64,000 nucleotides of DNA, taken from positions 35,387-99,386 of IMG/VR virus record IMGVR_UViG_3300017963_000217. One strand, written 5' to 3'. A model generated the notes under the pieces. The model was not told the DNA's origin, searched no databases, and worked only from the letters and a program-made list of their open reading frames with translations. Both the position numbers and the translations under genes were made by a program. The DNA is from a virus. Of the stretch, positions 2,035-50,404 are shown in pieces; the stretch's first letter is position 1; every line of letters begins with the position of its first letter.

Positions 2035-2067
2035 TTATAATAAACTAACCGCTCTTATTATAGAGGG
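2035..2067 (+). promoter_or_regulatory. Candidate phage promoter motif TTATAAT-n3-CTAAC-n11-TAGAGGG
   Basis: Near-identical arrangement at 21260-21291; both sit upstream of structural gene starts. Confidence 0.4.
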
Positions 2068-2104
2068 CTTTATATTTTTGTTTGGGAAGGGGAGGTATAT
2101 AGTA

Positions 2105-3223: not shown

Positions 3224-3229
3224 TCGCTC

Positions 3230-4587: not shown

Positions 4588-4621
4588 GTAATCGTAAAAT
4601 TTTGCAAGGAGGAAAGTTATT

Positions 4622-5191: not shown

Positions 5192-5264
5192 TATTTATAT
5201 TTAATTATTGGATCAAAAGCACGTTTAGTGCATCCAAAATTACTTGACGGAGGCGAGTTAAGTT

Positions 5265-22719: not shown

Positions 22720-24327
22720 ATGGGAAAAAAATATACTATAGGATATATAGAGGAAAATTTTAATAAAGAAGGTTATAAATTATTAACTAGTGAATACAAT
22801 GGGTGCAAACAAAAGCTAGATTTTATATGTCCTAATGGCCATAGACATAATATAAGTTTTGATAAATGGTTAAAAGGCCAAAGATGTTATTACTGTAATG
22901 GTAATGTGAGATTGAGTAACACAGAAGTAAAAAGAGAATTTGAAGAAAATGGATATATATTATTATCTCAATATAAAAACAGCGGCACTAAATTGAAATA
23001 TAAATGCCCTCAAGGCCATATAGGTGAGATGAAGTGGGATCATTTTAGGGACGGTCATAGATGTCCAGAATGTTCGGGGAATAAACCTATTAGTAGAGAA
23101 AAGATATCCGCTAGATTTAGCTCAATGGGTTATAAATTTTTAGATAAGATAAATAACAACGGTATTAGACGATTGTCTTATGTTTGCGATAAAGGTCATT
23201 ATGGAGAAACCACATGGTATAACTTTAACAAAGGTATAAGATGTAATGAATGCGCGGGCAAAGCAAAAAAGACGGTGGATTTTTTACGAAATGAATTTAA
23301 CACAGAGGGATACGCACTTGTAACAGAAAATTATGAAAACTGTCACCAAAAATTACATTTAGTATGCCCTAATGGTCATAATTATTATGTATCATGGGAT
23401 AATTGGAATAATAAAAACTCTCGTTGTACGAAATGTAGTGAATGGGGCAGATCTAATCAAGAAACTGAGTTATTCGAGTTTTTGAATGGTATATGTGACA
23501 AAATAATTAGAAATGATAGATCATTAATAAGCCCTTATGAGATTGATTTTGTAATACCTGAAAAGAATGTTGCTATAGAATATTGCGGCTTATACTGGCA
23601 TTCTGAATTAGCTGGTAGAAATAGGAATTATCATATAGATAAATTAGATAAATGTCAATCCAAGGGTTATAGACTTATAACTATTTTTGAGGATGAATTT
23701 GTAAATCGTAAAGAAATTGTTTTTTCAAGGCTCAAAACTATTCTTGGTTTAAATAGTAATAAGATATTTGCTAGAGATTGTTTAGTAAAAGAGATATCTA
23801 CTAATGAGGCATCCGAGTTTTGTAATAAACATCATTTACAAGGATATCACGGTTCATCAATTAAAATAGGTGCTTTTTATAAAAATAAATTAGTATCAGT
23901 AATGACTTTTTCTAAACCATCTATAGCTAAAGGTAGTAAATATAAAGAAGATTTTATTTGGGAACTGTCTAGGTTTTGTTCCATCCAAGACTATATTATA
24001 ATTGGTATAGCTTCAAAGTTATTAAAATTTTTTGAAAGAAATTACAAATGGAATGAGATATTTTCATATGCAGATAGAAGATGGTCTGATGGTAATTTAT
24101 ATATAAAAATGGGATTTGAATATTCTAGTATTACTACTCCTAACTATTGGTATTTGAGTAAACAATCAAGAATTCATAGATTTGCTTTGCGTAAAACAAA
24201 AGAGGATCCTAAGGATCAAACAGAATGGCAAATAAGAAAATATGATGGTTGGAATAGAATATGGGATTGTGGGAATTTGAAATATAAAAAAATTAATGCC
24301 TCATATTTAAGCAACTATGTTGCTTAG
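22720..24327 (+). CDS. Hef-like free-standing endonuclease: Zn-ribbon repeats, PD-(D/E)XK-like domain, GNAT/Mom-like C-terminus
   Basis: Four CxxGH..RCxxC repeats; EIDF..AIEYCGLYWH..IFEDE; WELSRFC..GIASKLL..SYADRRW..GNLY..WDCG. Confidence 0.75.
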   Translation: MGKKYTIGYIEENFNKEGYKLLTSEYNGCKQKLDFICPNGHRHNISFDKWLKGQRCYYCNGNVRLSNTEVKREFEENGYILLSQYKNSGTKLKYKCPQGHIGEMKWDHFRDGHRCPECSGNKPISREKISARFSSMGYKFLDKINNNGIRRLSYVCDKGHYGETTWYNFNKGIRCNECAGKAKKTVDFLRNEFNTEGYALVTENYENCHQKLHLVCPNGHNYYVSWDNWNNKNSRCTKCSEWGRSNQETELFEFLNGICDKIIRNDRSLISPYEIDFVIPEKNVAIEYCGLYWHSELAGRNRNYHIDKLDKCQSKGYRLITIFEDEFVNRKEIVFSRLKTILGLNSNKIFARDCLVKEISTNEASEFCNKHHLQGYHGSSIKIGAFYKNKLVSVMTFSKPSIAKGSKYKEDFIWELSRFCSIQDYIIIGIASKLLKFFERNYKWNEIFSYADRRWSDGNLYIKMGFEYSSITTPNYWYLSKQSRIHRFALRKTKEDPKDQTEWQIRKYDGWNRIWDCGNLKYKKINASYLSNYVA

Positions 24328-29383: not shown

Positions 29384-32300
29384 TTGCCTGCCCCTACCGA
29401 AACATTTCGCATTGAAATACTGGAAGATATTAAAAAGTCAGCTACTGACCAAGAAACCAAGCAGCTCGCTGCTAATATGGTTAAATTGACCCGCGCTGTT
29501 GAAAGGCTTGAAAAGTCACTGGTTAGAACTGCGCCCACTCATCGTGCTGGAGATCCTTCCTTTGAACAAATAAGACGTGATATAAAAAAGATCGAACTGC
29601 GGGAAGATGCTGTTAAGAAATTAGAAATAGCAGTTAAGCAGTTGGAAAGACGTATGGGTGAACTGCCTAATACTATTAGGACAGTTGTAGGTGGTAGTAG
29701 GGGTGTACTTAGACGAGAAGAAGAGAGGCGCGTTGCTGGAAGGCCTGTGGGAGGACTACCTGAGAACAGAGAATTAGTAAGGCAGTTAAAATCATTAGCG
29801 GATGCTCTTAATAGAGTCGAAAAGTCAGCAACTTTTGCAGGCGGCAGAGAACAAACTAGGAAAGATATAGAAGCTATAGCTAAATCTCTAACGGCTAGAG
29901 ATAAATCTGCCTCAGAATTAAGCAAAGCTATTGATAATTTAAGTAAGAAAATAGAGGTTGTTGCTCCTACTAAGAATGTACCAGCTCCTACTTTAAGGGA
30001 ACTAAGTGATGTAAAGCTATTAGGACGGGATTTAAAAGAAATAGGTGCTGATTTCAAGAATATAAAAAATCAGTTAAAAGATAAAATAGTAGTATCATTT
30101 GATATAGAGACTTCTGAAATTAAGAAAGATCCTCAGGGAAAGAAAATAGTTGATGCTATAACTCAAATAGCGTATCAAAAAGGCACACTAGAACAAATAT
30201 TAAAAGGACAGGCTGAAGTAAAACAAATACTTATTAAGCCCCCTAAGGGAACCAGGACTGAGGAATCTTTCAAAAAATTAATAGGCAAAGCTGCAGAAGT
30301 TAATAAAGCTGAATTAAAAACTTTACTTGCTGAAGGTAAAGAAGCTGATGAAGCTTTGAAAGAATTTGCTAATGCACTTAAAGGCGCTTCAGCTGTTGTT
30401 GGTCAAAATATAGGCGATTTTGATATTGGAATACTTGAAGATCATTTTAAGAAGACAGGAACTAAATTAGACGCTGTAGATAGTGAGTTAGAAGGATTTG
30501 TGGACACACTTAGACTAGCTCGTAAGGCATTTCCACAGAGAGCTATTTTAGGACCACAAGCTCAAATTAAAAAACCTTTTGGATTAGAACAATTTGCTAA
30601 AGACTTTGAACTAGCAGGATCATCAGCTGAAGATTTAGGCGAAGAGATGCACGATGCTAGAGGTGACGTAAAGAAAGTAAGATTGTTGTTACGGGCTTTG
30701 GATGGTTCTACGGAAGAGATGAAAGCTGCTGAAGAATTCTTTTCTGCTAGACTTGATCGTATATCAAAAAGACTAGAGATATTAACTAAAGATTATGAAA
30801 GATTAAGTCAGAAAACACAGCAAGCCATTAGTGACCTAGATAAGTTTAGGTCGCAGTCTTCTGATGCTTCTGATGAACTAAAGAAGGTTAAGAAAGCGGC
30901 TGAGCGTACAGTTTTAGAACTAGCTGATCCAGCTAAAATTAGATCATCTATACAAGCAGCTACATTTAGGCCACAGGTAATACACCCTAGAGCTGGCGGA
31001 GGCCCTACACCAATAATTGGTGGGGAAGGTGTACCAGGCCTTGAAACTATGGCTGCTAAAGTAGGAGATCTAGCAACTTCGTTAGATAAGCTACAGAGTA
31101 ATATTATTTCTTCTCTAGAGAAAGGTATGTCTAGGGGGATGGAGATTATAAGAAATGAAGCTGGAGAGGCATTTAGACTTGCTCCTGGTGGTAGAGAGTT
31201 TGAAATAAAAATAGCCAACGTGAGAGATTTGACACGATCTCTTACTCAGGAGTACGGAGAGTTTGTTAGACCAGGAACTAGTGCTTCGCAATTAGTTGAG
31301 CAATTTATTAGAGCTTTTACTAGGTCGTCATTAAGTACCGCTAGATCTCCAGAATCCATGGCTGAAGAAATTATTAAAGAACTAGCACCAATGACAGAGG
31401 AATCTGTGTCTATAATGGGCAGGGAGATACAAGAACTTTTTGGTAGGATCAGACGAGAAGAGATAGGAGTAGCCGAAGTAGCTGGTAGAGCTGATCTGGG
31501 CGAGATATTTAAAAATATTGTAGTGGAAAATAGAGCTCAGCGAAAATTAAACGAGGATTTTATAAAAAGAATAGCTATACCAGCCGTTCGTATAGGCGCT
31601 GGTGGTCTTGGGCTCGAGACAAAACTTGGTGCAGAGAAAGCTATATCAAACTTTGCGACTATAACTACTGGACTAGAAAAATTTGTGAATGAGCTAAAAT
31701 CTCTTGGTGCTCCGGCTATAGAAATAGAAAAATTTGCTGCAAGGGTTGGTGAATTACCATTAGCATTTAAGCGCGCCGGTAGTTTGGCCAGGCCTGGTGG
31801 ACCTGAGGAATCTAAAGCACAAAAGGTTGCTCAAGACTTAATAAACAGAATGATAGAGCTAGGTGGTAGGCAGTTAGTTGGTAGAGGTTATCAAAGAGCT
31901 ATAGCATTGAGGACATTTGAACGTAGAGCGCCTGTGATAGGAAAAGAGCGAGCTACAGAAGAAGCATCTGCCATCGTCCAGAAATCTGGAGAGAGTGTCG
32001 AAACTTTATCACAACAAGCTAAAGATTTGGGAATTACTGCGCTGGATGTAGCAAAGGCTCTAGATACTATAGAATTTGAAAATATTTTTGATATTATAGA
32101 TAGATTATTTCAGGCTGGCAAAGTTCCTTTTTTACAAAGAAAAGCTGGTGGCCTGGGTAGATTTGACGATCAAACTTTGAGAGATATATCCAGCATAGTC
32201 AATTCTGTTACTGGATTATTACCTCTGATAGAGCCTGGACGCCCTAGACGTAGAGCACAACAGGAATCAGTGGTTAGAGTTTTGACTAAGCCCACTACTA

Positions 32301-35300
32301 GAGCTAGGCCTCAAGAACAAGAAAGAAGGATATTAGAAGTAAATTTACTGTGGCGTGATTTAGCTGATCAGGCAGCTAGACTTGGGGAAAATTTAATTGA
32401 GGGTAGAAAAGATCTAGAAGGCGTTATAGGAGAAACATTGAACCTAAGTGATTCTGCTGGCGCAGCTTTTAAAGAACTTAGTGGTCATTTAGGAGAGCTT
32501 AATAAATCACTTATTAGTGTAAGCACGGGAGCTATTCGTGGATTGGCTCCTTTTGAACAGTTCACACCATTAGAAAGACAGGTATCACAATCGCAAGCTG
32601 GAATAGCTGGTGGAATAGGTAGAGCTGGTTTAAGGACGCCATCATTGTTAAGTGCCAGAGAAGAGGCTCTTATCAGATCTGGAGCAGCTGGAAGTCGTGG
32701 TACTGGTTTAGATGTATTAACCGAAATAAGAGATACAGCGGAGACGTTCGAAGATCAGATAGTTATATCCGGTAGATTGGCTAAATCATTTAATAAGATA
32801 GTAGAGCGATTAATAGCTCCAGCTAAAAGAATAGCAGAAGGTGGAGAGATAACCGAGATACAGCCTGGGATAAAACAGATAACTGGCAGAGGCAAAGGAT
32901 TTTTAAAAGCTACTGAGGATTTTGAGTCTGCTTTAGAAGATGTTACTTCTGAATTTCAAAAGATATTTGGTGTTCCAAAAACTATAGAAAGCAGAGCAGA
33001 TGTAGCAAAAATAGGCGACGAAATAATACGTGTTTTAAGAGAACATAGAGGTAAAGAGGTAGAAGTACAAACTGCCAAATTATCAGAGATTTTCTTGAAC
33101 ACATTTGGTAGAAAAATAGCAACTAGGTTTGGTACAAAGGGTGTTGCTATAACACCAGGAGTAGTACCTACAGCTACGAAAGAGGTGCAAAAGGCCTTAG
33201 AGGAAGTCAGAAAGACTATAGTAGGTGGTGCTAAGGCAAAAGTAGTTCCTGGTGCAGGTCTTGGGTATGCTAAAGTGCCTAGGACTGCTGGTGAACTATT
33301 AGCTGATATAATAGGTGAGGAAGCCCCAAAACTTTCTAAGGCTGGCGAATCCATATTTAGTGACAAAGTACTGGAATTTTTACAGGAAAGTTTGGTAAAG
33401 TCTGGTAATAAATTTGTACAGGAATTATTTACTGACGCTAGTAAAGGATTGGTTACTAAAGAGGAAGCCAAAAAGCAAAAAGCCATATTTGACGCTGCTA
33501 CTAAGTTTATAGAGGAAGCTTTTAGAGTTAAATTACCAACTGGAGCAGCTGGTATAAAAGAAATACAGGACATTTTTACTGGATTATTTCCTAAGGAAAG
33601 TTTATTTGAGTTTCAACCTATAGAAGCTAGGATAAGCGCTCGTGGTGTTGCACGTCGTGGTTTACAGTCAGAGGTGCTGGAAGGTATAATTAACAACTTA
33701 ATAGGAACTACTACTGATATAACAACTTTGATAGATCAAGTAGGCAAAAACGCTCTTACAGAGACCGAAGAAGGTAGGAAGCGTATAAATGAAACATTAC
33801 AAGCTCTTGGATTTGAGGCTTATGAAAATATAGATGAGGTATTGAAGAAATTAAAACTAGAATCTCCTGATTTTGATCCATCTAAAATTCTGGAACTAGC
33901 AAACGTATATACTACTGTTATAGATGAATTTGGAAATAAGTTACAAAGTTTTGTATCACCAAAATTTTTACAAACAGTAGAGATTCCAGCTAAAGCACTG
34001 GGAGATCCCATAAAGGACTTAAAACTGGATTTTCAATCATTTGCTGCTTTTGCGGGAATTTTTGGAGAGAACTCCGAACTATTAAAAGAGCTTGCTAAAT
34101 CTTCAACATTTGCATCTAAAGAAGCTTTTGAATTAATTAAAGCTTTTCAATTATTAGATCCAACCGTGGCTAATTTAAAAGATGCGGTATTAGCCGGATT
34201 ACCTAAATTTTCTTTAGAAGAAATAAGAAAATTTTCTGGTGCAACCGGAACATTAGAAGATTTTAAAGACACCATTTTTGACATAGCTAAATTTCCTACC
34301 GCTTTTAAACTACAAATTCCAAGTATGAAGCCAGGTAAGTTAGGTTTTGAAGAATTTTTTGTACCTGGTCCTGCCGCAAGGGGTACATTCGAAGAACCAC
34401 TCATTGGTGAGCGTTCACCTACTGCATTATCAAGGGCTCTTTCTAACGTAATCAGTGCAGCCAAAGACGTAGAAGAACTGGCAGCAGCTGCAGCACGTGA
34501 AGGGGTGGGCCTTAGCGAAGAGTTTCAAAATAAATTTGCTTCAACCATTCGCGGAGAGCTAACCAAGGAACTAACTGATACTATAAAAAAATTTCAGCAA
34601 TATGAAACCGCTTTGACTCCTGAAAATATTAAAATTATGGAGAGAACGCTTGATAGATATATTAAGGCTTTGTCGGAAACGGAGCCGGTAGCGCCTGTAT
34701 TTGCACGCCCTGGTGGAGAGACGCAAAGAGGGGCTGTAGAAGTATTTAGACAGGAGCTTGTGGGTGATCCTAGACAGTTTAGTCGCGTTCTTAGTAGAAT
34801 ATCAGATATATTAGTAGGTGTAAATCCTGCTTCCATTAAACGTGAATCCGAAGAACTGAGAGCAGCTTTAAAATCATTTGAAGAGAGTGGTGGTGTAATA
34901 CCAGCTGAGTTTAGAACACCAGGCAGATTGGGTATATTAGAGCGCGGCTTTCAAGGTAATTTCCCAGCTATGATAGAAAGTTTTCTTGACCGATTAAAAC
35001 AGGAAGCCGAAGCTAAACCACTTTTTGATATCCAACTAGAAGCTGGTAACTTAGAGGAATTTGCGGATAGTGTGGGAATTAGTCTACAAAGATCTGTAGA
35101 AGAAGCTTTAGAACTCAGAAGACAATCATTAACGAGAGCTAGGGCCTCATATGAAAAAGCTCTTGGTGAAGAAGTTATAGGCAGAAAGAAAGGCATAGAA
35201 CAAGCATTTCTACGCAGAGAAGTTCCAGCTATAAACTTAAAAGCCATTAATGCCGCGGCTGATAAAACTGAGGATTTAAATAAATTAATAGATACACTAT

Positions 35301-38300
35301 CTGGTAAAGATACTAATATACAGATAGACATACCTAATGCGAACAGTATTATTAGTAAACTTAAAGAAATACGCGATGAGCATGAAAAGTTTGTTAAGAA
35401 AGCTAAAGAAATTGGTTTGCCAGTTCTCAAAGAGGGTGAAATAGCTATACCAGAAGCTGCTGCGGCTAAAATAAAGGTGCGGACTGGTGAAGCTGGTGAA
35501 ATAAAGACTACACTTAAAGATCTAATAGAGCAACAAAAACGTGTATTCGTTGAATCTGCTAGATTTCCATTTACTGGCACATTGAGTGTGCAGCCACATG
35601 TTGCTAGATTAATGGGCGAAGCTTTTGGCAAGGAAGTTGGTAGATTAGGTACCAATGTAGCTGCTGTGCCAGGCGCTCCAAGGCTAGATATAGAATCCTT
35701 AACTGGAATTTTAGATGAATTAAGTCAATTTGTTGGTATAAAGCCAGGATTTGGTGTAGACGAATCAGGTGAAAAGCGAGCCTACAGTTTACTAGAACAA
35801 AGAGAGATGGCGTGGTCTGAAGGCACGGCCGCTGGTGCAGAGCGTGCTATGGAGCTAACCAAAACCATAGAATCTTTGATATCAGTTATAAATTCTGCAA
35901 CACCTAAGTTTACAAATCTTGAACAAAAACTGGATTTTGACGGTGACGCTTTAGTTATACATACTGGACAGGTAGAAAAATCAAGACAAGATATAAAGAA
36001 ACATTTTGAATCATTTGGTAAAGATGTAACCTCAGTAAGAAATCTGTTTAGAACTATATTTACAGCCATAGATGAGAGAGATATTAATACCCTTGTGGAG
36101 ATGGGGCAGGCGTTTAGTGAAAAATTTCCTAAAGAAAAAGGATTCGAATTTTTAACACAACCTCAGATTAGGGAGAATATAGAAAATCTTAACTTAAATG
36201 AGGTTGCTGAAGCTCTATTTTCTGGTACAAAGGGATTTGAATCTTTAGAAAAAGGAACAGATGAATATATTAAAGCATTGAATGATTTTACAAAATCTTT
36301 ATTAGAGAAAGAAATATTACCAGAAGTATTTACTAAATTAGGGGTTGTAGAAACAGAAAGAGCAGGCGTAGCAGAACGCATAGGAGGTACAGTCACTGGA
36401 TTATCGGGATTAGGAGCTACTGAATTAGACAGGAGTATATCTAAATTAACTCAGGAAATACTTAGACAACAATTATTTGAAAAAAGATACACAGATGCAA
36501 TAACTGGTCAGTTATTTAAATTACAAACCGGGCCTATTGTTGAAGGTATAAGTCGTTTAGCTAGAATTTCTGAATTAGAAACAGGATTTGGCCGTGGAAT
36601 GGCTGGCACAGGTGGTGGAGGGTTGTTACCACCATCAGCTGCGTTTTTAAAAAGATTTCCAAAGGAAAGCATAGCTTTAGGTGCTATTCCTGAGAAAGGT
36701 GAGTTCGCAGACACGGCTGCTGCTTTTGGTACTCGTATAAATGAGATTTTAAGATTCGTTATTCAGCAAGGATTTGATGTAAAACATCCTGGAGTACAAT
36801 CTGCTGCAAATAAAATAATAGAAAATATTGGTAAAAAAGGTGGAATTGAATCTATTATAGAAGTATTGAATGCTGAGGAGGGCCCTCTTAAGAAATTACA
36901 GAAATTTAATGAGCAAATAGAAAATGAAGTTAGACTTAGATTAGGCAAGCATCCCACTGAAGCACTAAGAGAAGAATTAAAAAGATTTGAGCCTGAACTT
37001 ACAGAAGCGGTAGTTGGTAATTTATCTAGAGAAGAAATTATAAAGCGTGTGATTAAACACGTAGATTTGGCTGCTACTTTTGAGGAATTGGGGAGACAAA
37101 TACAAAGACAGGCTGTCAAGGCTTTAACTATAAAACTTACTGAAGAGGTAGAAGCTCTTCCACCAGGCGCTAAAAAAGCTAGGAAATTGGCTGATATAAG
37201 AGCTGCTGGAGGCGTAGAGAAATTTGCAGCTGAGCAAGTAGCTAGGGAAGCCGCGTCTGAGACAGGTATTAGTTTATTTTCTACTATTACTAGTACATTA
37301 CAACCTATATATAGACTAAGAACTAGTATGGAAAATATAGAAACAGCTGCTAGACGTTCTAGACTTCCATTTCAAGCTCAAGAAGTATCTGTGCCTACAG
37401 GAGAAGCCGGCGAGAAGATAAAAAGAGATCTTCAAACAGCGCAAAAAGCTGCTAATGTTTTAAATAGATCGTTGATTCAAGCAGCGCAAGAACCTACTGG
37501 TGGAGTGCAAAAATTACTAGTGGTTTCTGCTTTGAAAGAACGTTTTAAAGAGTTGGAAGAGTTGGAGAAATTAGGGCGTGAAGCCAAAGCCAGTGTTGGA
37601 TCATTTGAATCTACTTTTGGCGACGTAGTAAAAACTAATGAGATAGCTGTAAAAGTATGGCAAGATGCTCTGAGACAAGTTGGAGCTGGTAGATTAGGTC
37701 CTATTGGTCCTAAAGAAATAGAAGAATCTTTTAATCAGATTAGTATGGCTATAGAAATAGCTAAAGATAAGATGAAAGAGATATCTCAAATTGCAGGTCT
37801 TCCACAGATAAGTCCTGAAGAAAGAGCTTTGACTGGTCTAGAAATCAGAGAATCTAAAAGTAAAGAGATATTCGAGCAATCCAGACAATTAGTAGAAGCA
37901 TTATCTGCTCAAGGAGAACCACTACCTGTTCCTGGTGATTTGGAAGCTAGTGCTCAATTACTACATGACAGACGACTAGAGCTATTAGAGTTTATAGCCA
38001 CGATGTCAGAACAGTTTAGACGTGTGTCAGAAGTTATAAAAACTATACCGGCTCAGAAAGAGTCCTTAAAATTAGTATTCCCTGAATTCGGCGATATAGA
38101 AAGAAAGATTGCTGATACTGGCGACGTTGATAAAGCTCAGTCCGAATTTGTTGAAGAACAGAAGAGCAATATGCAAGTTATTCAAGAATGGTTTAACATG
38201 CAGACTCAAAAAGCTTCTGATCTGAAAGACGCGGTAAAAACAACTCAAATCCCTGAAGAATCTGTTACTACCAGACAACTTGAACAAACTACATCTGAAA

Positions 38301-44300: not shown

Positions 44301-47300
44301 GATTGCCAGAGTCTTTTTCCGATATAAATCTAGGCATACGTAATTTCTTTGATTTAACAAGTCAACAAAGATTACTATTGGAAGAGCAGGCTTTACCGCC
44401 TAGAGAGAGAACATTTACTAGGTTGAGAGGTAGAGTAGCCGAAGAAGATATTAGAAGGCAATCACTTGCTGGAGAATTGGAACGTATAAATAGGACAATA
44501 GTACAGATAGGCACCATACGAGAACAAGCCAGAGCAGCTGGTGCTGTGATTCCAAGGGATCAATTAATGAGCATAACCGAATCTATAGCTGCTGGAGGTA
44601 CTGCACAGCAAGGGTTACAACTAGATCTACAGAAAGATATAAAATCTAACACATCAGATACAGTCACTCGTTTGGACGATATACTAGCGGCTTTGAAAGA
44701 TCCTAAAGCTGAAGCTAGGGGTGTGCAGTTAGCAAAGCAGATAGGAGAAAGCATTGCGTCTGATATAGAATTACTAAGAAATCCTCGTACTATAGATAGA
44801 GTAAATAAAGCTTTGGGATTACCGGTGCTAGAAAGGGGTATAGAATCTCAATTTAATGATTTAGTGAGGTTTAGAAATCTTGCTGAGAAACGTGGCAACA
44901 CACAGATTATAAAGGCTATTGATGAAACGTTGGCCGAACAGTCTAGAAATCTTATTTCTGCTGCTGGTTTAGGAAGAGCTAGAGGTATAATAGATCCAAG
45001 AGCTACTATTGGTGGTGGTATTGTAGAAATAACCAGGAATCTAGAGAACTTAGCGGCAGGCCGTCCATTAGGCCGCTCAATAGCCAGACAACGTATTCCT
45101 GAACTAGCATTTATGGGAGGCCAATTTACTGGACAGGACTTAATAAGTAGAGCTTTAGGTGGCGAAGGTCTAGTAGAATTTATACAAAGAATACAAGGTG
45201 CTGCTAAGATACCCACTGAAGAGGAATTAGGAGAAGCTCAATTAATTAGAACACTTGGTAGATCTATAGGACCTTCTATAGGAGTAGCGCTTACACCATT
45301 TTTGGGACCTGCTGGCATACTTGCGGCGCCAAGAGCTGCAGAGGCAGCAGCTGGGAGAATAGAAGGGGGAAGACTATCAGTACTAGCAGCGTCCCCTGAG
45401 TTTAAAGAATTAAATCAATTAATGAATGACCAGAATAAAACAAGTGTTACAAACTCTAAGACTTTACAGAAACTATTTGCAGCATATGGTGGATTCAATG
45501 AAATAGCAAGACAAGCTGCTAAAAGACAAGAGAGAGCCTATGATGTACAACTAAGGCAGTTAAATGAGCAGCGCAAAGGACTTGAGGTAAAATTTGAGGC
45601 TGGAGATCTAGGTACTGAAGAGTTTAGAAAACAAATGCAACAAGTAGCTTCCGAGATTACAGAAGTAGAAAAAAAGAGAGATGAAGCTGCTAAGACCGCA
45701 AGAAAAAGGGCTACTAGAGAAGCTGTTGGTGTAATAGCTTCTGCTACTACTGGATTTGCTAGAGCAGCGGGTATTAGTGAAGACGCATTAACAGCTTTAG
45801 GAACCACGGCTGCCGGATCAATAGTGGCATGGAATGCTTGGACTGCTCTGACCGGTGAAGAAATGCCCGAAGCGGTAAAAAAGGCTACTGATTCTTTAAA
45901 AGAAATGACCAAAGATATGGAAGATGTAGACTTTAATATTTTTGAAAAAGGCTTATTTGCTTTAGGAAAATATACAGGATTAGGTCTTGGAGCAGCTGGT
46001 AGGGCCGGTGCGGCTGCTAGAGGTGTAGAGAAAATGGCGGAGAATCAAGAAGATATATTAACCGCCGAAGAAAAAGATAAAATAAGGAAAGCTAAAGATT
46101 TACAAGCCACTAGTGAACAGATAAAGAAAGCTGATGAGTTATTAAAAACAATAAAGAAAGGCGATACTGAAAAGCTCAAAGGCGATGAAAAGGTTATAGA
46201 TGTCAATAGAGACCAATTAACAACTTTAATAGCTATAGAAGAAAATACGAGAAAATCAGCCGCTGATACAGCAGAACAGGCAACAGAAGCTAAAAAAGAA
46301 GCTCCAGTTACATCTATTACTAAAGAACTTAGAAATAAGTTAGATGAGATAAAGCAGGAAAGACTGATAGGTGGTGGAGATACAGCTGCAAAAATAAGGG
46401 ATTTTCTAGCGGCTGCTACACTAGTTACCGCGGCTGGATATGCCGGTACTAAGACACAATTATCAGCGGAACTGGGGGAAGCAGAAGATAGAGCGGAAAA
46501 AATAGGCGAAGCTTTTAATAAATTAGTATCTAGGTTTCCTAAAGAAGTAGAGGGTGCTATAGCTGATCTACAAAAACGTAGGGAGGAGACAGCAGAATCT
46601 TTGAGAAGAGCTAAATCACCTACTCAAATAAAATCCTTGTTGTTAGATTCTGAAAAAGCTTATAATGAATTTATTACTCAATTAGAATCAATGGCTTCTG
46701 GTATTGGTATGCAACTAAAGGAATCTGGCGAAGTTATAGCAAAAAGCAAAGATCAACTGTATTTGTTAGAGCTTGCTAAAGATATACAATCAGATTTTAG
46801 GAACGTTGGAAAAACTATAAGAGACTCTATTACGTCTTTGAAGGTAGATTTAGAATTTGGAACAGATTTAATAGGGGCTACCAAAGGCGTGCCTAAATTT
46901 GAAGAAATCCCTATAGGTAAGTTAGAAACGGAACTAACGCCCACAGAAAGGTTAGCAAAAGAGGGTGGAAAAGCATTCCAAGACATGATAGCTACTTTTC
47001 AAATATTGAATAGAGTGAGAGCTGAATTACTTGATGCCATAAAAAAGAATGCCGTTAATATATCTGATGCTAATGTTACTTTTTCTAATAGTATAAATGC
47101 TCACATAAAAACTATTGAAAGAGAAAAATCTAATATAGACAAAGTAAAAGGTGAGATTGATAGCTTAGATAAGACTGCTAAGGAACAAGTAAGACAGCTT
47201 AAAGATATTGGGCCTCCAAAGAAAATGGAGACAGGCTTCTTTATTAATATTTCTAAGTTTTATAAGGATTTGTATAAAAATGTATCTAATTTCTTTAAAT

Positions 47301-50300
47301 CTAAACCAGATATAGATACAGATCAGTTGGGAAGAGATCTTATTGGTAGTTCTTTATCTAATATTAATAAAAAGACCATAGAACTTAGATCAAAAGTAGC
47401 GGAATTCAATAAAACCTTGGATATAGGTAAACTTCTAGACAAGAAAAATATTGATGAAGAAATAGCTAAACTAAAGAAATCTCTCGCTCAAACTCAGACT
47501 ATAGGTAAATCTGCATTGGCTAGATATAGAGAAGTAGCACCTATTAAGCCATTATTTGGTGTATCAGAAGCTGTGAATATTCCAGAGGCTACAAGAGAAT
47601 ATGAATCTGTATCTGCTATTATAGTAAAGGCATCTAGAAAGATGCGTAGGTTGAGGATAGCAATAGATGACTTGGAAAAATTTAAGACTACTCCATTAGG
47701 ACGAGCTATTATAGGTCTGTCTGAAAAATCTAGGTTGGCAGCAGCGCAGCTAAATCTACAAACAAATGCCCAGGAAAAGTATGTTAATGCTTTGAAGTTT
47801 GTCAATACGGAATTAGCCAGGTTAAATCAAATATTAGCTGTAGGAGTTAATCTTAAAAAACTTGCCGGTGATTTCAAGAGTTTGAAGGAAGGGTTAGAAA
47901 TAGAGAATAAGTTAGCTGCGTTTACTAATGCTTTTAAAGAGGCTATGGATAAAACATTAGGAGGAGCACATCCTGAAGCTCCTGTGATTCCTTCTTTTGA
48001 TTTGTTACAAGCTGGCGTACCTATGGAAAGAATATTCAATTTGACAAGGGAAGAAGCAGAAAGAGCAGCAATAGTAGGTAGAACAGGAAGAGCCCCTACT
48101 TTAGCAGAAGAACAAGAGATAGAATTTAACCGTAGATTACGAGAAAGAGCATACAAACAAGCTAAAGAAGATGAGAAGTTGAATCGCCAGCAAAGTGTTG
48201 CTACCAATTTATATAGAAGCGTTGTCGAGGCTCAGCAACGAATAGCTCAGGTAGAGGATCCAAGGCTGAGAAAAAGTATGTTAGATGAGCTAGAGGTAGT
48301 AAGACAGGAGTTGTTAAGACAAGCCGGTGAAGCTCCTGCAAGAGGTGAGGAGATAGCTCCTGGTGTATTTGAAAGGATAGGTTATCATCTAGGAACCGTA
48401 GGAGAACAAATAAAAGAAGTATTTGAAAAGTACGGTGGTGAAGCGGCGGTATCCAGCTTGCAGACGACTTTCGAACAATCCATGGAAGCTCTTAGATCAG
48501 GACTACCAGAGGCTTTTAAACTAGATCCAGTACATGAGCAGTTAGTAAATGCTAATATAACTTTAGAGCAGATAGCTAAGAATACAGCCGAACAACCTGG
48601 GTTGATTGCTTCTGTTCTAGGAAAGGTATTTGGCAGCAAAGAGGAAGTAATTAGAAAGGCGGGAAGGGGGACAACAGCTGGCGGTGGAACAACTGGAACA
48701 TTTCAGATGGGAGGATTCACAGGTATGGTTGATGGTGCTGGAGGACCAAGACAAGATAATCATCCAGTTTTAGTAAGCTCTGGTGAATATGTAGTTCAGC
48801 AGCCTGCTGTCAAAAATATAGAAAAAATGTACGGATCTGGAGCCATGGAAGTGATTAACCAGGGCCAATTACCAATAGCGGGATACGGTGGTTTAATGCG
48901 CCGTAGATATCCCATGGGAGGAAAAATTCCTTATAGATTTGCTGGCGGCGGATCACCAGAACAAGCTTTTATACAACAACAGTTGGCTATGGGTGTTTCT
49001 CCTGAAGAAATAAGAGCGGAGCTTGGTGGTATTAAAACACCGCTTTTTGATCCGGGAGCATTAGTTGCTGGAAGTATAGGTGCTGGTGCTACTACATTAA
49101 CAGGTCCAACTAAGGTATTAGCAGATATCATCGCAACTAAAGCTTCTAGAATAGGTACTAAGAGCGAAGATATATTTGATGTTGCAGGATCATTTTTAAA
49201 GCAACATGTGCTTAGACCAGAATTACCCCCAGTTAATATGCCTAGAGTGACTGGTATTGATGTAAATAGTGTACAAAGAAAAGTTGAAGAAATAGAGAGA
49301 CAACTTGGGTATGAGCCTACTAAAAAACAACGCAGGCTGCGGGGTATAATGGCTATGCAAGAGTTATATGGACGTGGCGTATCTGGTGTTAGTATGTCAG
49401 GAGTACCATCGTTGTTTGGTGTGAGTAGTAAAGTAGCGGAATCGGAGATGGAAGTAGGAGGACGTAAGCCTACTGAATCGGAACAACTATCTCGTGATAT
49501 AATGGCTTTGGAAGCATTATTTGGGAGTAGCTCCGGAGAATTTTTTGGTGGCGGAATGATAAAGCGCTATCAAGATGGTGGTAAGATGACCATAAATGAT
49601 TATGTTAAATGGCAAGAAGAAAGTAGTAAATCGGTGCGGACAGAGCCTAAGTCTAGTTCTATCATGGACTTTTTTAGATCGTTATTTAAGAGAAGATCTA
49701 TGCAATATATGGGAGGGTATCTACCAGAAAGCGCGAAAAAAGCCTATGGTGATAAAATACCATCATTCCAATTTGGAGGCGTAATGCCAGAGGATGGATT
49801 GGCGTTTTTGCACAAGAACGAAACAGTCTTTCCAGATAACGAAAATATAGGAGAAAAAATAGCTGATGCTATAGTAAGAAAACTAGAAGAAGTAAAAATA
49901 GATTTTAATATACCAACCACAGCTGATTTACCAGAACTTACCATTGGTAATTTGAATGATCTACAAAATATATTAAATGAAGGATTGAATAATGCAGGTA
50001 CGGTAGGTGCTGCTAGAGGAAACAGCGCAATAGATAGATTTGTAGAAGCTGCGGAGGAAAGATTTACAGTACTAGAACAACAAACATTATCTAACTCCGA
50101 TAATATAAAAGTGCTGGACAGAAAATCTAATGAATTAGATGATATAAAAACAGATATAGAAACATTAGAATTTAGACTGGAATCAGTGTATAGTAGAACA
50201 GACAGGATGGTTGACGTCGCAGCTGATAGATCCTATGTTGATACAGCAATTAATGAAGCTCTTGGCAGATTTGATACTGATAAACTAGCACCAATGAGGG

Positions 50301-50404
50301 CTGAAATAGGAAGAATTAATATTGCTATATCTCAGTTGAACAACGATCTTAATGATCAGGGAACTATTATGTATAGTAATATTAATAGGTTGGGGATAGC
50401 TTAA
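29384..50404 (+). CDS. Giant tape measure protein (7006 aa) fused to DEDDh exonuclease, two-barrel RNA polymerase and PD-(D/E)XK nuclease domains
   Basis: TTG start with SD GGAGG 29371-29375; canonical tape-measure locus; domain motifs listed in the sub-features. Confidence 0.88.
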   Translation: MPAPTETFRIEILEDIKKSATDQETKQLAANMVKLTRAVERLEKSLVRTAPTHRAGDPSFEQIRRDIKKIELREDAVKKLEIAVKQLERRMGELPNTIRTVVGGSRGVLRREEERRVAGRPVGGLPENRELVRQLKSLADALNRVEKSATFAGGREQTRKDIEAIAKSLTARDKSASELSKAIDNLSKKIEVVAPTKNVPAPTLRELSDVKLLGRDLKEIGADFKNIKNQLKDKIVVSFDIETSEIKKDPQGKKIVDAITQIAYQKGTLEQILKGQAEVKQILIKPPKGTRTEESFKKLIGKAAEVNKAELKTLLAEGKEADEALKEFANALKGASAVVGQNIGDFDIGILEDHFKKTGTKLDAVDSELEGFVDTLRLARKAFPQRAILGPQAQIKKPFGLEQFAKDFELAGSSAEDLGEEMHDARGDVKKVRLLLRALDGSTEEMKAAEEFFSARLDRISKRLEILTKDYERLSQKTQQAISDLDKFRSQSSDASDELKKVKKAAERTVLELADPAKIRSSIQAATFRPQVIHPRAGGGPTPIIGGEGVPGLETMAAKVGDLATSLDKLQSNIISSLEKGMSRGMEIIRNEAGEAFRLAPGGREFEIKIANVRDLTRSLTQEYGEFVRPGTSASQLVEQFIRAFTRSSLSTARSPESMAEEIIKELAPMTEESVSIMGREIQELFGRIRREEIGVAEVAGRADLGEIFKNIVVENRAQRKLNEDFIKRIAIPAVRIGAGGLGLETKLGAEKAISNFATITTGLEKFVNELKSLGAPAIEIEKFAARVGELPLAFKRAGSLARPGGPEESKAQKVAQDLINRMIELGGRQLVGRGYQRAIALRTFERRAPVIGKERATEEASAIVQKSGESVETLSQQAKDLGITALDVAKALDTIEFENIFDIIDRLFQAGKVPFLQRKAGGLGRFDDQTLRDISSIVNSVTGLLPLIEPGRPRRRAQQESVVRVLTKPTTRARPQEQERRILEVNLLWRDLADQAARLGENLIEGRKDLEGVIGETLNLSDSAGAAFKELSGHLGELNKSLISVSTGAIRGLAPFEQFTPLERQVSQSQAGIAGGIGRAGLRTPSLLSAREEALIRSGAAGSRGTGLDVLTEIRDTAETFEDQIVISGRLAKSFNKIVERLIAPAKRIAEGGEITEIQPGIKQITGRGKGFLKATEDFESALEDVTSEFQKIFGVPKTIESRADVAKIGDEIIRVLREHRGKEVEVQTAKLSEIFLNTFGRKIATRFGTKGVAITPGVVPTATKEVQKALEEVRKTIVGGAKAKVVPGAGLGYAKVPRTAGELLADIIGEEAPKLSKAGESIFSDKVLEFLQESLVKSGNKFVQELFTDASKGLVTKEEAKKQKAIFDAATKFIEEAFRVKLPTGAAGIKEIQDIFTGLFPKESLFEFQPIEARISARGVARRGLQSEVLEGIINNLIGTTTDITTLIDQVGKNALTETEEGRKRINETLQALGFEAYENIDEVLKKLKLESPDFDPSKILELANVYTTVIDEFGNKLQSFVSPKFLQTVEIPAKALGDPIKDLKLDFQSFAAFAGIFGENSELLKELAKSSTFASKEAFELIKAFQLLDPTVANLKDAVLAGLPKFSLEEIRKFSGATGTLEDFKDTIFDIAKFPTAFKLQIPSMKPGKLGFEEFFVPGPAARGTFEEPLIGERSPTALSRALSNVISAAKDVEELAAAAAREGVGLSEEFQNKFASTIRGELTKELTDTIKKFQQYETALTPENIKIMERTLDRYIKALSETEPVAPVFARPGGETQRGAVEVFRQELVGDPRQFSRVLSRISDILVGVNPASIKRESEELRAALKSFEESGGVIPAEFRTPGRLGILERGFQGNFPAMIESFLDRLKQEAEAKPLFDIQLEAGNLEEFADSVGISLQRSVEEALELRRQSLTRARASYEKALGEEVIGRKKGIEQAFLRREVPAINLKAINAAADKTEDLNKLIDTLSGKDTNIQIDIPNANSIISKLKEIRDEHEKFVKKAKEIGLPVLKEGEIAIPEAAAAKIKVRTGEAGEIKTTLKDLIEQQKRVFVESARFPFTGTLSVQPHVARLMGEAFGKEVGRLGTNVAAVPGAPRLDIESLTGILDELSQFVGIKPGFGVDESGEKRAYSLLEQREMAWSEGTAAGAERAMELTKTIESLISVINSATPKFTNLEQKLDFDGDALVIHTGQVEKSRQDIKKHFESFGKDVTSVRNLFRTIFTAIDERDINTLVEMGQAFSEKFPKEKGFEFLTQPQIRENIENLNLNEVAEALFSGTKGFESLEKGTDEYIKALNDFTKSLLEKEILPEVFTKLGVVETERAGVAERIGGTVTGLSGLGATELDRSISKLTQEILRQQLFEKRYTDAITGQLFKLQTGPIVEGISRLARISELETGFGRGMAGTGGGGLLPPSAAFLKRFPKESIALGAIPEKGEFADTAAAFGTRINEILRFVIQQGFDVKHPGVQSAANKIIENIGKKGGIESIIEVLNAEEGPLKKLQKFNEQIENEVRLRLGKHPTEALREELKRFEPELTEAVVGNLSREEIIKRVIKHVDLAATFEELGRQIQRQAVKALTIKLTEEVEALPPGAKKARKLADIRAAGGVEKFAAEQVAREAASETGISLFSTITSTLQPIYRLRTSMENIETAARRSRLPFQAQEVSVPTGEAGEKIKRDLQTAQKAANVLNRSLIQAAQEPTGGVQKLLVVSALKERFKELEELEKLGREAKASVGSFESTFGDVVKTNEIAVKVWQDALRQVGAGRLGPIGPKEIEESFNQISMAIEIAKDKMKEISQIAGLPQISPEERALTGLEIRESKSKEIFEQSRQLVEALSAQGEPLPVPGDLEASAQLLHDRRLELLEFIATMSEQFRRVSEVIKTIPAQKESLKLVFPEFGDIERKIADTGDVDKAQSEFVEEQKSNMQVIQEWFNMQTQKASDLKDAVKTTQIPEESVTTRQLEQTTSEISDAIDNHINQAILNRKRAALKQLEKLAAGPEATITAPLHEIFRASAIKAGGKYGGGTQEESILSSMLGLEDPNAILEVTGLRGTSIHRQIQKELLQQFPKAEIEKPIEDLENRLVGHLDVLYEKAGKKVVADIKTIYSPKQFDFLKQISDEIQHRGITIQEKLDELKSKEITSYVEQNVIRRLEDYLSQVNVYLKNVENSVGEIIVVSTHDPFDRFTLPIGEFDPERFDKDLEAIESARLKVLKILTSVELGVGLPKETLSEFPKIYQELADRLAKTGPKGFLETLPTVPLGEVQRSSEEILNSLDETQEKLFDQLSKEYLELFEALGGPGRAEKTFGKLFSAGGAAFGAAGGAGGATPPPPPPGGFGGGFDDDEEFKKRIEAILAKMREGVEPDVPEIVDLIKALEDEIPIRILAAQNRRDAAMAKALEELSKAILQAIEESGSTVKSFKKIVRLFDQIDQVKKQQPSPQDINRLRTPEIVRQRPDDPQNLFTNLKALFETAIRVNKLADPSEIEKFGPEIAELIGQAAERGPVKEITDQIADAVNKKKGGMAIIWQYYKKAVGDYFVNRLNALSEEINAESGTPRGRAAFAEFEQVLEKYLANIRGTLGRASDIYTQRGPTGRKDIFVEPELARLTGIYKTPAQLREQARTQYGLQPQFAPAFDVLTSDLADLENIRTPLEKIQSVFDMLTKLDPAMKEILEDADLFRRIGDQAVEAWDFETLQRGVTQLREALQSYERLQIGGFGGMGEDFTATAKANVSETIKLLKRMERMLVTGGAQSSPLGLVGVPTELDPQTQALLHRRNIAQLQKYFETPEAEGGPEKGAAFTYKQRIIDPASKQVLSNMTEEFKKIGEASNRAGEQVSLFTQRTEDLIASFQERKGLGQAFGRVLRWGIASRSVYGLVRALQSMVDTIVDVESGIAVLRQVMNPLTTDFQQITASAVSFAKEFGLPIRQVIDSMRVFAQQGLAQAEVVDRARTSALAANVTTLSAVDATEAITAATKVYRQEGESTVRFLDSWTEVEARHAITSNELANALKKAAAAAKTSGVEFDELNAIVTAIGETTRQSGKEIGTSLRFIFRRIQAEKGPKELASIGIPVVGAGGELRSTFDILGDLSDKWKDLTNAQRLNIATAIGGRRHYNSLIVLMQNWDRALSALNSSLNSKGAAERRNYIVMQTYAKQLQQVRGALVDLQIQFGKFALPVAKGLLQSIKFLLETLANIPPGIKIAALAFSGLFVAIAKGKTLIDDIINRVMSFGSVLSDFGSQFSKEFKIGIFEAFGKIPKGLGEIDTRGLSTITEAGKSIQDFESVIGKAAYVVAQFGRSWNSVMSEIAFTGTATSETLSKAFGKLGGVLGKTGLVVGTKIPVLGQIIQAAATGAQAGEGAFLELGKLFGIPAEALAKWSKENTSFVKSIAPLAGSILALIPISGKASDSIKKLAFSATQYEKSLSPIRRQLSGQLSEINQLANSYDNLQKAIDKANMASQPEAVAESIRREEFVSPLLEIAKASKGAKEFGNNLSKVNLSMVDSFDQFGNAIIKPTANLKEYFRVLKAAKIQEIAETEISALEKFSEELTNAGTVSAKFRSELKKFVKEIPAIGPILSKQIQISPAQELREAVDAVNKILERGAEFPMTTAFDELFQRYNKDLEEARERYREFFADFKRILSEISTGDLSVAQVRGLLDRETLQPAFELMTEFEERLKTFADAGKLDWEDILGIEILKKLKPEVTFDYAAPLTKDLFRQAGIIQRSQKAFAGDIVLFSDEIEKQFDIAGDQGILKYREGLGFFVEGIDKELRTVREIPFDTVSQFVDSIFPAQKISEGVQENVDILRESLVGAAAGMIGIADKEFRREFGLGPRFFEQIPTETLIQTPGGFDLGGRAFGPQPFKAEFAGIEGGFQTIVRDFFVKPLEQLEQLVEEPKRRLDAGVGFIQGLENEIQRFGTTIKNNQVVVQYIAAFVDLNKSLAESTRLLNENIAVERARNEYLKETAGLLAGLPESFSDINLGIRNFFDLTSQQRLLLEEQALPPRERTFTRLRGRVAEEDIRRQSLAGELERINRTIVQIGTIREQARAAGAVIPRDQLMSITESIAAGGTAQQGLQLDLQKDIKSNTSDTVTRLDDILAALKDPKAEARGVQLAKQIGESIASDIELLRNPRTIDRVNKALGLPVLERGIESQFNDLVRFRNLAEKRGNTQIIKAIDETLAEQSRNLISAAGLGRARGIIDPRATIGGGIVEITRNLENLAAGRPLGRSIARQRIPELAFMGGQFTGQDLISRALGGEGLVEFIQRIQGAAKIPTEEELGEAQLIRTLGRSIGPSIGVALTPFLGPAGILAAPRAAEAAAGRIEGGRLSVLAASPEFKELNQLMNDQNKTSVTNSKTLQKLFAAYGGFNEIARQAAKRQERAYDVQLRQLNEQRKGLEVKFEAGDLGTEEFRKQMQQVASEITEVEKKRDEAAKTARKRATREAVGVIASATTGFARAAGISEDALTALGTTAAGSIVAWNAWTALTGEEMPEAVKKATDSLKEMTKDMEDVDFNIFEKGLFALGKYTGLGLGAAGRAGAAARGVEKMAENQEDILTAEEKDKIRKAKDLQATSEQIKKADELLKTIKKGDTEKLKGDEKVIDVNRDQLTTLIAIEENTRKSAADTAEQATEAKKEAPVTSITKELRNKLDEIKQERLIGGGDTAAKIRDFLAAATLVTAAGYAGTKTQLSAELGEAEDRAEKIGEAFNKLVSRFPKEVEGAIADLQKRREETAESLRRAKSPTQIKSLLLDSEKAYNEFITQLESMASGIGMQLKESGEVIAKSKDQLYLLELAKDIQSDFRNVGKTIRDSITSLKVDLEFGTDLIGATKGVPKFEEIPIGKLETELTPTERLAKEGGKAFQDMIATFQILNRVRAELLDAIKKNAVNISDANVTFSNSINAHIKTIEREKSNIDKVKGEIDSLDKTAKEQVRQLKDIGPPKKMETGFFINISKFYKDLYKNVSNFFKSKPDIDTDQLGRDLIGSSLSNINKKTIELRSKVAEFNKTLDIGKLLDKKNIDEEIAKLKKSLAQTQTIGKSALARYREVAPIKPLFGVSEAVNIPEATREYESVSAIIVKASRKMRRLRIAIDDLEKFKTTPLGRAIIGLSEKSRLAAAQLNLQTNAQEKYVNALKFVNTELARLNQILAVGVNLKKLAGDFKSLKEGLEIENKLAAFTNAFKEAMDKTLGGAHPEAPVIPSFDLLQAGVPMERIFNLTREEAERAAIVGRTGRAPTLAEEQEIEFNRRLRERAYKQAKEDEKLNRQQSVATNLYRSVVEAQQRIAQVEDPRLRKSMLDELEVVRQELLRQAGEAPARGEEIAPGVFERIGYHLGTVGEQIKEVFEKYGGEAAVSSLQTTFEQSMEALRSGLPEAFKLDPVHEQLVNANITLEQIAKNTAEQPGLIASVLGKVFGSKEEVIRKAGRGTTAGGGTTGTFQMGGFTGMVDGAGGPRQDNHPVLVSSGEYVVQQPAVKNIEKMYGSGAMEVINQGQLPIAGYGGLMRRRYPMGGKIPYRFAGGGSPEQAFIQQQLAMGVSPEEIRAELGGIKTPLFDPGALVAGSIGAGATTLTGPTKVLADIIATKASRIGTKSEDIFDVAGSFLKQHVLRPELPPVNMPRVTGIDVNSVQRKVEEIERQLGYEPTKKQRRLRGIMAMQELYGRGVSGVSMSGVPSLFGVSSKVAESEMEVGGRKPTESEQLSRDIMALEALFGSSSGEFFGGGMIKRYQDGGKMTINDYVKWQEESSKSVRTEPKSSSIMDFFRSLFKRRSMQYMGGYLPESAKKAYGDKIPSFQFGGVMPEDGLAFLHKNETVFPDNENIGEKIADAIVRKLEEVKIDFNIPTTADLPELTIGNLNDLQNILNEGLNNAGTVGAARGNSAIDRFVEAAEERFTVLEQQTLSNSDNIKVLDRKSNELDDIKTDIETLEFRLESVYSRTDRMVDVAADRSYVDTAINEALGRFDTDKLAPMRAEIGRINIAISQLNNDLNDQGTIMYSNINRLGIA
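30080..30700 (+). other. DEDDh (DnaQ-like) 3'-5' exonuclease domain of the giant protein
   Basis: ExoI SFDIETS (D240, E242), ExoII VGQNIGDFD (D347), DTLRLAR, ExoIII HDARGDV (H423, D428). Confidence 0.85.
32520..36800 (+). other. Single-chain two-barrel RNA polymerase domain (beta-like then beta'-like) of the giant protein
   Basis: TFEDQIVIS, GRKIATRFGTKGV, PIEARISARGVARR, FVPGPAARG, IGRKKGIEQAFLRREV, ARFP and LDFDGDALVIH, collinear with RpoB/RpoC conserved motifs. Confidence 0.85.
38420..39020 (+). other. PD-(D/E)XK (RecB/Cas4-like) nuclease domain of the giant protein
   Basis: RASAI..GTSIH..EIEK..GHLDVL..VADIKT..QVNVY. Confidence 0.8.
40960..42000 (+). other. Tape-measure core domain (TP901/PhageMin_Tail-like)
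   Basis: VESGIAVLRQV..FAKEFG..FAQQG..ELANAL..TRQSGKEIGTSLRFIF..ILGDLSDKW..IGGRRHYN pattern. Confidence 0.85.

Follow-up and report, generated by a model that had tools for sequence, protein, structure and literature searches.

A giant phage tape measure protein with a predicted RNA polymerase and nuclease cargo

The closest described system is gp96 of the Thermus phage P23-45, a tape measure protein fused to a virion RNA polymerase (RNAP), an association that its authors termed previously unsuspected (Chaban et al. 2024, Nat Commun 15:317, PMC10770324). gp96 is a protein of 5,002 amino acids (aa) carrying the motif DFDGD at residues 779-783. An active RNAP found in P23-45 virions, it transcribes the pre-early genes, among them the gene encoding the free RNAP gp64. 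gp96 is flat and clampless, a shape that the authors link to passage through the tail, and they propose that transcription and the passage of DNA through the tape-measure pore are coupled (PMC10770324). Here we analyse the tape-measure locus of IMG/VR virus record IMGVR_UViG_3300017963_000217, within a stretch of 64,000 nucleotides (positions 35,387 to 99,386 of the record; hereafter the window). The window makes up the final 64 kb of a viral contig of 99,386 bases with a CheckV completeness of 55%, and it holds an open reading frame (ORF) of 7,006 codons in which nuclease and polymerase modules are predicted to precede a tape measure. We consider it probable that the encoded protein is the tape measure of an uncultured large phage, with an N-terminal cargo of RNAP and nucleases that is injected to transcribe phage genes. 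The phage is a large, tailed, uncultured one, probably of jumbo size.

A preliminary description of the locus had noted one uninterrupted 7,006-aa ORF with, in order, a DEDDh exonuclease (~aa 235-435), an RNA polymerase (~1045-2470), a PD-(D/E)XK nuclease (~3015-3210), a Pro/Gly linker, a tape-measure core (~3870-4200) and a GG-motif C-terminus, and had seen in it a candidate tail-delivered transcription machine. The ORF and all these modules were recovered in our analysis; for the polymerase both fold and motifs were found, with somewhat wider bounds, from aa ~890 to at least 2225. As for the proposed machine, its domains and the precedent of gp96 speak for it, while delivery, transcription and nuclease activity are argued by analogy. 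The same description held virion RNA polymerases to be separate from the tape measure. That statement is outdated: the gp96 fusion is published (PMC10770324), and the principle of a tape-measure-fused polymerase has therefore already been described.

The 7,006-aa protein is encoded by a single uninterrupted frame, with the stop codon inside the end coordinate. Its TTG start codon is preceded, ~8 nucleotides upstream, by AGGAGG, a good Shine-Dalgarno site, and both G+C content and GC skew are even along the whole ORF.

29384..50404, plus strand: whole tape measure polyprotein ORF; architecture kept in 64 giant homologues and 47 IMG/VR loci

Homologues of the same architecture, one of the checks that the preliminary description had named, were found in number. 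With aa 1050-2500 as query, a word-indexed search found 64 proteins, 3,984-7,955 aa in length, in JGI, ENA, NCBI and Logan assemblies, and all 64 carry both the PF10145 domain and the polymerase region. Exhaustive HMMER search with aa 1100-2299 against 1.8 billion representatives gave 104 clusters at the 50% identity level, of which 78 reach E <= 1e-30; nearly all consist of proteins 6.4-8 thousand aa long or of pieces of these cut off at contig ends. IMG/VR contributed 47 loci, 45 of which have a stop-free frame through the polymerase match. A second public assembly contains a contig, 99,389 bases long, that encodes a 7,006-aa protein of the same 90%-identity cluster. The ORF is not a misassembly, since ~100 metagenomic protein clusters and 47 IMG/VR loci share its architecture.

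The polymerase region was examined in motif alignments of 35-41 family members that are 27-54% identical to the window. Invariant beta-like positions are E1123-D1124 in TFEDQ (FED at aa 1122-1124), R1243-K1244, R1248, G1250 and K1252-G1253 in FGRK......GxKGV (GRK..KGV at aa 1242-1254), and further along G1294..P1299..G1303 (GLGYAKVPRTAGEL). Invariant beta'-like positions are R2060-x-P2062, L-D2184-F-D-G-D2188 and H2193, and all full-length homologues carry D[FYH]DGD. The motifs are collinear with what we take to be their bacterial counterparts, 'FEDS', 'GRHGNKGV' and 'LGVPSRMN' of beta and 'RAPTLH' and 'NADFDGD' of beta'. Alignment of family blocks by hhalign with individual sequences (E. coli RpoB and RpoC, P23-45 gp96 and gp64) gave low probabilities throughout; the sole correct register was that of DFDGD with NADFDGD 458-464 of E. 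coli beta' (RpoC). Searches of the region by sequence or profile against PDB, Pfam, PHROGs and INPHARED genomes (tblastn) returned coiled-coil noise only. The resemblance to bacterial RNAP motifs is a lead only, and the fold was therefore tested.

32054..34006, plus strand: predicted beta/Rpb2-like half, aa ~891-1541 (AlphaFold model m4feed80d5643)
34163..36058, plus strand: predicted beta'/Rpb1-like half, aa ~1594-2225, with a clamp-like region and a catalytic double-psi beta-barrel (DPBB) (model m00054b04c024)
35933..35947, plus strand: DFDGD metal-binding motif, aa 2184-2188 (invariant columns)
36059..37333, plus strand: conserved stretch following the catalytic barrel, aa ~2226-2650 (identity 0.35-0.48 over 22 divergent homologues)

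AlphaFold2 models of aa 881-1680 (pLDDT 67.5) and aa 1081-2280 (m00054b04c024, pLDDT 72.7) were compared with known structures by VIA-align, and enzyme folds were found in these slices, as the preliminary description had expected. The nine best matches of the aa 881-1680 model are all second-largest subunits of RNAPs (Z 9.0-10.8, 189-299 residues aligned), and the match that follows these nine is unrelated (Z 6.7). With the Xanthomonas beta subunit 299 residues align, model residues 11-654 against chain residues 472-1280. For the aa 1081-2280 model an exhaustive comparison gave a top ten consisting entirely of RNAP largest subunits or QDE-1 (Z 9.8-11.7), led by Arabidopsis NRPD1 (Z 11.7) and including human Pol I RPA1 (Z 11.4; 269 residues, model 514-1141 against chain 18-627). 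This model also matches the African swine fever virus (ASFV) subunit, QDE-1 (Z 10.7) and vaccinia, archaeal, Pol II and Pol III subunits. Lower scores were obtained with M. tuberculosis beta' (Z 9.1), P74-26 gp62 (Z 8.4) and P23-45 gp96 (Z 7.4-7.8), and designed or minimal DPBB proteins match at Z 7.7-9.2.

The models thus point to a single-chain two-barrel polymerase, in the order beta then beta', from aa ~890 to at least 2225. A beta'-type barrel with a DxDGD loop and a beta-type barrel with an ED pair and basic residues are both predicted. A helical insert of ~90 aa inside the catalytic barrel accounts for the distance of 121 residues between RxP and DFDGD. In beta'/Rpb1 chains the N-terminal 350 residues, which bear the clamp, align with model residues 514-860; the clamp assignment is less certain than the position of the polymerase. 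The bridge helix and trigger loop are expected in aa ~2226-2650, where candidate motifs were picked by eye.

The ruler half of the protein was identified by sequence profiles. The protein passes the tape measure family profile (PF10145, TP901 type) above the curated threshold, and the core also matches phrog_4211 (E 1e-74). Of the eighteen PHROG families that match the slice aa 3900-5000, 16 carry a tape-measure annotation; the best matches cover aa ~3825-4330. In the family conservation profile the core is the most conserved part of the protein (0.63-0.71).

39311..39418, plus strand: Gly/Ala/Pro-rich linker between the enzyme and ruler halves, aa ~3310-3345, with PPPP at aa 3332 (translation; low alignment occupancy)
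41141..41722, plus strand: tape-measure core PF10145 PhageMin_Tail, aa 3920-4113 (Pfam E 1e-25, 91.2 bits against a cutoff of 33.2)
41975..42595, plus strand: two hydrophobic stretches resembling membrane segments, aa 4198-4216 and 4386-4404 (Kyte-Doolittle, 19-residue window, peaks 1.78 and 1.68)
42596..50401, plus strand: long C-terminal ruler with a GG-motif-rich end, aa ~4405-7006 (translation; weak phrog_3547 tape-measure match near the C-terminus)

Two putative nucleases flank the polymerase. The first, a DEDDh exonuclease, belongs to a poorly conserved part of the protein, the N-terminal 550 residues being the most variable in the conservation profile.

29384..30073, plus strand: N-terminal coiled-coil region, aa 1-230 (weak PHROG tape-measure matches phrog_1535 and phrog_167; poorly conserved)
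30086..30688, plus strand: DEDDh (DnaQ/RNase T-like) 3'-5' exonuclease module, aa ~235-435 (phrog_403, E 6.5e-8)
31031..32023, plus strand: conserved block just upstream of the modelled polymerase, aa ~550-880 (conservation profile)
38396..39088, plus strand: RecB/Cas4-like PD-(D/E)XK nuclease, aa 3005-3235 (phrog_1706, E 8.9e-7)

The DEDDh catalytic residues D240, E242, D347, H423 and D428 (five residues in three motifs) align with those of six relatives, giving the full D-E-D-H-D set of the DnaQ/RNase T exonucleases (PF00929), here embedded in a tape measure. PF00929 is above threshold in all five IMG/VR near relatives (E 1e-6 to 1e-12); the window's own module falls below the Pfam threshold, with PF13482 RNase_H_2 at 17.5 bits against a cutoff of 22 as its sole Pfam match. 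Distant family members lack the module, which is present solely in the subclade of the window, and we therefore take it to be a subclade addition. The second nuclease is more widely kept, being conserved in 27 of the 34 loci compared, and H3060, E3077, D3092, D3105-I-K3107 and Q3162..Y3166 are invariant in 27 sequences. Its profile matches PDB 4ic1_A (E 1.1e-4) over the H..E..D..ExK region. This structure, which we take to be Sulfolobus Cas4 SSO0001, represents the RecB-family/Cas4 nucleases, whose full motif set (H, E, D, DxK, QxxxY) is found here, but within a tape measure. The translation of aa 3005-3235 contains no cysteines, so that the four-cysteine iron-sulfur cluster of Cas4 is absent and the module is RecB-like rather than Cas4 proper.

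The cargo differs among relatives: the family protein P0055 carries several helix-hairpin-helix DNA-binding domains in addition. DFDGD lies at residue 765 in P0099 and at residue 1528 in P0110 (5,013 aa), indicating either that the N-terminal modules vary between lineages or that some gene calls are truncated.

The architecture resembles that of gp96 and its counterparts in P74-26, G20c and TSP4: in both cases a giant tape measure carries a single-chain two-barrel RNAP with DFDGD ahead of the ruler, and in both cases the lineage also has a free paralogue, gp64 there and proteins of 1,085-1,178 aa in three jumbo relatives here. The differences are several. The structural match to gp96 reaches only Z 7.4-7.8, against 10-11.7 for cellular-type subunits. 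The polymerase occupies aa 1-1200 of gp96, whereas here it is internal (aa ~890-2650) and much larger; gp96 is flat and clampless, whereas the modelled enzyme runs beta then beta' with a clamp-like region. The window protein gave no Pfam match to a metallopeptidase domain, and its family occurs in far larger genomes. Two nuclease modules are present here; a word search of the main text of the gp96 paper found none mentioned (PMC10770324).

Other phage polymerases differ in architecture. The multisubunit RNAPs of the jumbo phages phiKZ and AR9, virion and non-virion (PDB 7ogp, 7s00), share the cellular-type beta/beta' folds, and the AR9 and phiKZ non-virion RNAP (nvRNAP) chains are among the best matches of our models (with Z scores of 10.3 and 10.1 against the beta-like half and of 8.8 and 7.9 against the beta'-like half). 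The phiKZ-like virion RNAPs are also injected. The multisubunit enzymes consist of four or five separate polypeptides outside the tape measure, in contrast to one chain inside the tail ruler here. gp66 of phi14:2, a crAss-like phage, and the N4 virion RNAP (vRNAP) are likewise polymerases within giant particle-borne proteins that are delivered with the DNA (PMC10770324), but both belong to podoviruses, which have no tape measure, and N4 vRNAP is T7-like rather than two-barrel. gp66 is not among the structural matches listed for either model, and the two may still be related.

A full-text search of the literature returned one relevant work, PMC10770324, and no description of the window family; a word search of its supplementary files found no mention of further tape-measure fusions. 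The survey in that work filtered sequences with [RK]xPx{20,100}DxDxD (PMC10770324). The 121-residue gap between RxP and DFDGD exceeds the 100 residues of the filter, which would therefore miss the window family, and this may explain why the literature searched holds no description of it.

Free polymerases of the same family were found in the relatives. Searching the records of five large relatives with the family profile detected a second, free protein in two of them, and a search with the free protein detected a third copy, giving a free polymerase in three of the six jumbo relatives searched. The three records measure 228, 238 and 269 kb, the 269-kb record being rated 100% complete.

L054:5001-8537; L055:5335-8592; L056 (minus strand): predicted free single-chain two-barrel RNA polymerase of jumbo relatives (family search)

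All three proteins (1,085-1,178 aa) align to the same family. A motif scan of two of them detected LDFDGD in both and NFEDQ in one, and two show sub-threshold Pfam matches to Rpb2_6 followed by Rpb1_2, which is the right order. By hhalign, aa 881-1680 of the tape-measure family align with the free polymerases over 553 columns (probability 97%, E 6.7e-11). As both a fused and a free polymerase are found, the lineage resembles P23-45 with its gp96 and gp64. In two of the three relatives the free polymerase lies near a SNF2-like helicase with LAGLIDADG/intein-type inserts and a phiEco32-like COOH-NH2 ligase. On the window's own contig, a 1,656-aa ORF upstream was considered as a second polymerase and rejected, being a fibre-like repeat protein.

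How such a protein might act can be sketched from these features. Residues ~1-3300 would form the enzymatic cargo (DEDDh exonuclease, polymerase with a complete two-barrel active site, RecB-like nuclease), joined through the Gly/Pro linker to the TP901-type core, the membrane-like segments and the ruler. By analogy with P23-45 gp96, the protein would become part of the tail, its C-terminus lying at the tip. On infection the tape measure would be expelled ahead of the DNA, its hydrophobic or ruler part forming or lining a channel through the envelope. The polymerase would then transcribe the first-entering (pre-early) genes without the host enzyme and might help to pull the genome inside; the free paralogous polymerase would take over later. 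The nucleases would probably process the entering end of the genome or act against nucleic acids of the host. We infer that the protein is in the virion and is ejected, and likewise infer its activity as an enzyme, its template and timing and the parts played by the nucleases.

The length of the protein bears on how the cargo is stored. A preprint abstract gives the P23-45 tail as 800 nm, and at 1.5 A per residue the 5,002 aa of gp96 correspond to ~750 nm. Judged against that abstract, the closeness of the two values suggests that the polymerase part is stored extended. By the same rule the window protein would correspond to a tail of ~1.05 um if the whole chain counts, or ~0.53 um for aa 3450-7006 only.

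Several observations weigh against injection of a transcribing enzyme. That the enzyme half is in the virion at all is suggested by analogy with gp96, and no sequence homology to gp96 was found by phmmer and profile searches against PDB (including 8h2m and 8h2n) or by hhalign against gp96 1-1250 (probability <=4%); the functional analogy is therefore one of architecture alone. A folded enzyme of ~2,000 aa with a clamp-like region does not obviously fit a tail lumen, and gp96 is clampless. The models are of moderate quality (pLDDT 67-73), with the FED and GRK..KGV loops at low confidence (pLDDT below 50), and their RNAP matches reach aa ~2225, the predicted region of the bridge helix and trigger loop lying beyond. 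Foldseek comparison of the 1,200-residue model (aa 1081-2280) with PDB gave no match at E <= 0.001. Finally, a search of the 99-kb contig of the window, of 55% completeness by CheckV, turned up no free polymerase.

Some of these observations would fit another fate of the enzyme half, namely that it is cleaved off during tail assembly and acts in the producing cell, for example in late transcription or genome processing, so that virions contain only the ruler. The flexible Gly/Pro linker parts the two halves, a folded polymerase of 2,000 aa is hard to fit in a tail tube, and several phages process their tape measure proteins by proteolysis. We nevertheless regard this as unlikely. The fusion is kept in all ~100 clusters, with no split forms among the full-length matches, and it is not evident why an enzyme acting late should need fusion to a tail protein. 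Virions of P23-45 were found to contain the fused polymerase (PMC10770324).

Alternatively, the polymerase may be ejected but make something other than mRNA, serving with the nucleases as a primase-like enzyme or a DNA-pulling motor that processes and internalises the genome end or destroys host or defence nucleic acids. The two nucleases fused beside it, one of them (PD-(D/E)XK) kept in 27 of 34 loci, would suit such a role. The two-barrel enzymes are also a diverse group that includes the RNA-templated QDE-1, a match of our model at Z 10.7, and a DNA polymerase, PolD (PMC10770324). The active site, however, has the residues of DNA-dependent RNA polymerases, both models find their best structural matches in beta and beta' subunits of transcription enzymes, and the only case studied, gp96, transcribes pre-early genes. 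We give this account slightly less credence than cleavage.

A polymerase-like region that has been exapted as a catalytically dead structural domain of the ruler is very improbable. It would accord with the lack of any Pfam or PDB sequence match to an RNAP and with the low confidence of the motif loops in the models. Against it, all metal-binding and NTP-contacting residues are invariant down to 27% identity while their surroundings diverge, and a dead domain would not keep these residues amid such divergence. That the giant ORF is chimeric, through misassembly, or reads through several genes is effectively refuted, its size being the only point in favour, by the uninterrupted architecture of the 64 giant proteins from four assembly sources, the 45 stop-free frames among 47 IMG/VR loci, the 7,006-aa copy in a second assembly and the even composition.

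A tail-injected polymerase that transcribes phage genes thus remains our preferred reading, and it would extend a strategy so far known from little material. The sole published tape-measure-fused polymerase belongs to one genus of Thermus phages, Oshimavirus; the window family is much larger (~100 clusters at 50% identity) and unrelated to it in sequence, so that the strategy appears widespread and may have evolved more than once. Compared with the main text of the gp96 paper, what is new is the presence of nucleases that would travel with the polymerase, which bears on the processing or the defence of entering phage DNA. There is also a physical puzzle, how a polymerase of ~2,000 residues would be stored in a tail tube and passed through it. 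A bolder account, which we offer tentatively as a possibility open to doubt, is that the polymerase-ruler fusion arose independently of the Thermus case, from a beta/beta' enzyme of the cellular or jumbo-phage type, in a lineage of uncultured phages that is widespread and has genomes of ~180-330 kb. The product would be a multi-enzyme injected machine in which polymerase and RecB-like nuclease, joined in one subclade by the DnaQ-like exonuclease, act jointly where the channel ends, drawing the genome end in, processing it and transcribing it, with the 7,006-aa chain lying extended in a tail of ~1 um.

The genes neighbouring the ORF match nothing in Pfam and PHROG searches. The preliminary description had placed the ORF after tube genes and before tip genes. 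The first part of this finds a lead in the upstream 466-aa gene, which Atlas connects with Phage_tube_2 (score 0.91; the family on 21% of members); for the second part the downstream gene gives Atlas leads to baseplate proteins that are all sub-threshold (below 0.9).

The genome is of metagenomic source with a G+C content of ~37%, and contigs of the family reach ~325 kb. Every long ORF of the 99,386-base contig is on one strand and the ORFs at both its ends are open; no terminal repeat was found on it. No tRNA was found in the window, and a search of the 99-kb contig for a promoter-like repeated motif found only coding repeats. A host was sought through binned genomes and none was found. Three family members, L058, L059 and L060, lie on contigs of 16-25 kb in metagenome-assembled genomes labelled Gammaproteobacteria, Woesearchaeota and Fermentibacteria; these phyla are unrelated, and the contigs are probably mis-binned virus and indicate no host.

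Other genes of the contig were noted in passing. Just upstream of the window, a 1,432-aa ORF (L002:11979-16277; genome 29978-34276) matches Terminase_6C (E 2.6e-5, just above threshold) and is interrupted by intein splicing and LAGLIDADG domains, that is, by at least one intein. An actin-fold protein (L002:5877-6872; genome 23876-24871; Pfam Volactin, PF25216, E 2.3e-71) adjoins a coiled-coil protein. Free-standing homing endonuclease genes, one of the HNH type (phrog_559, E 3e-123) and two of LAGLIDADG types, lie in the structural module at window 22720-24327, 24735-25553 and 5633-6610. The fibre-like protein of 1,656 aa (L001:14148-19118; genome 14148-19118) has internal repeats such as 'EGLQGG..YYHLT' and no family match. 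Downstream, at window 59250-60506 and 60519-62951, two proteins with bacterial Ig-like domains (Big_1 / invasin D3) are likely parts of fibres or adhesins.

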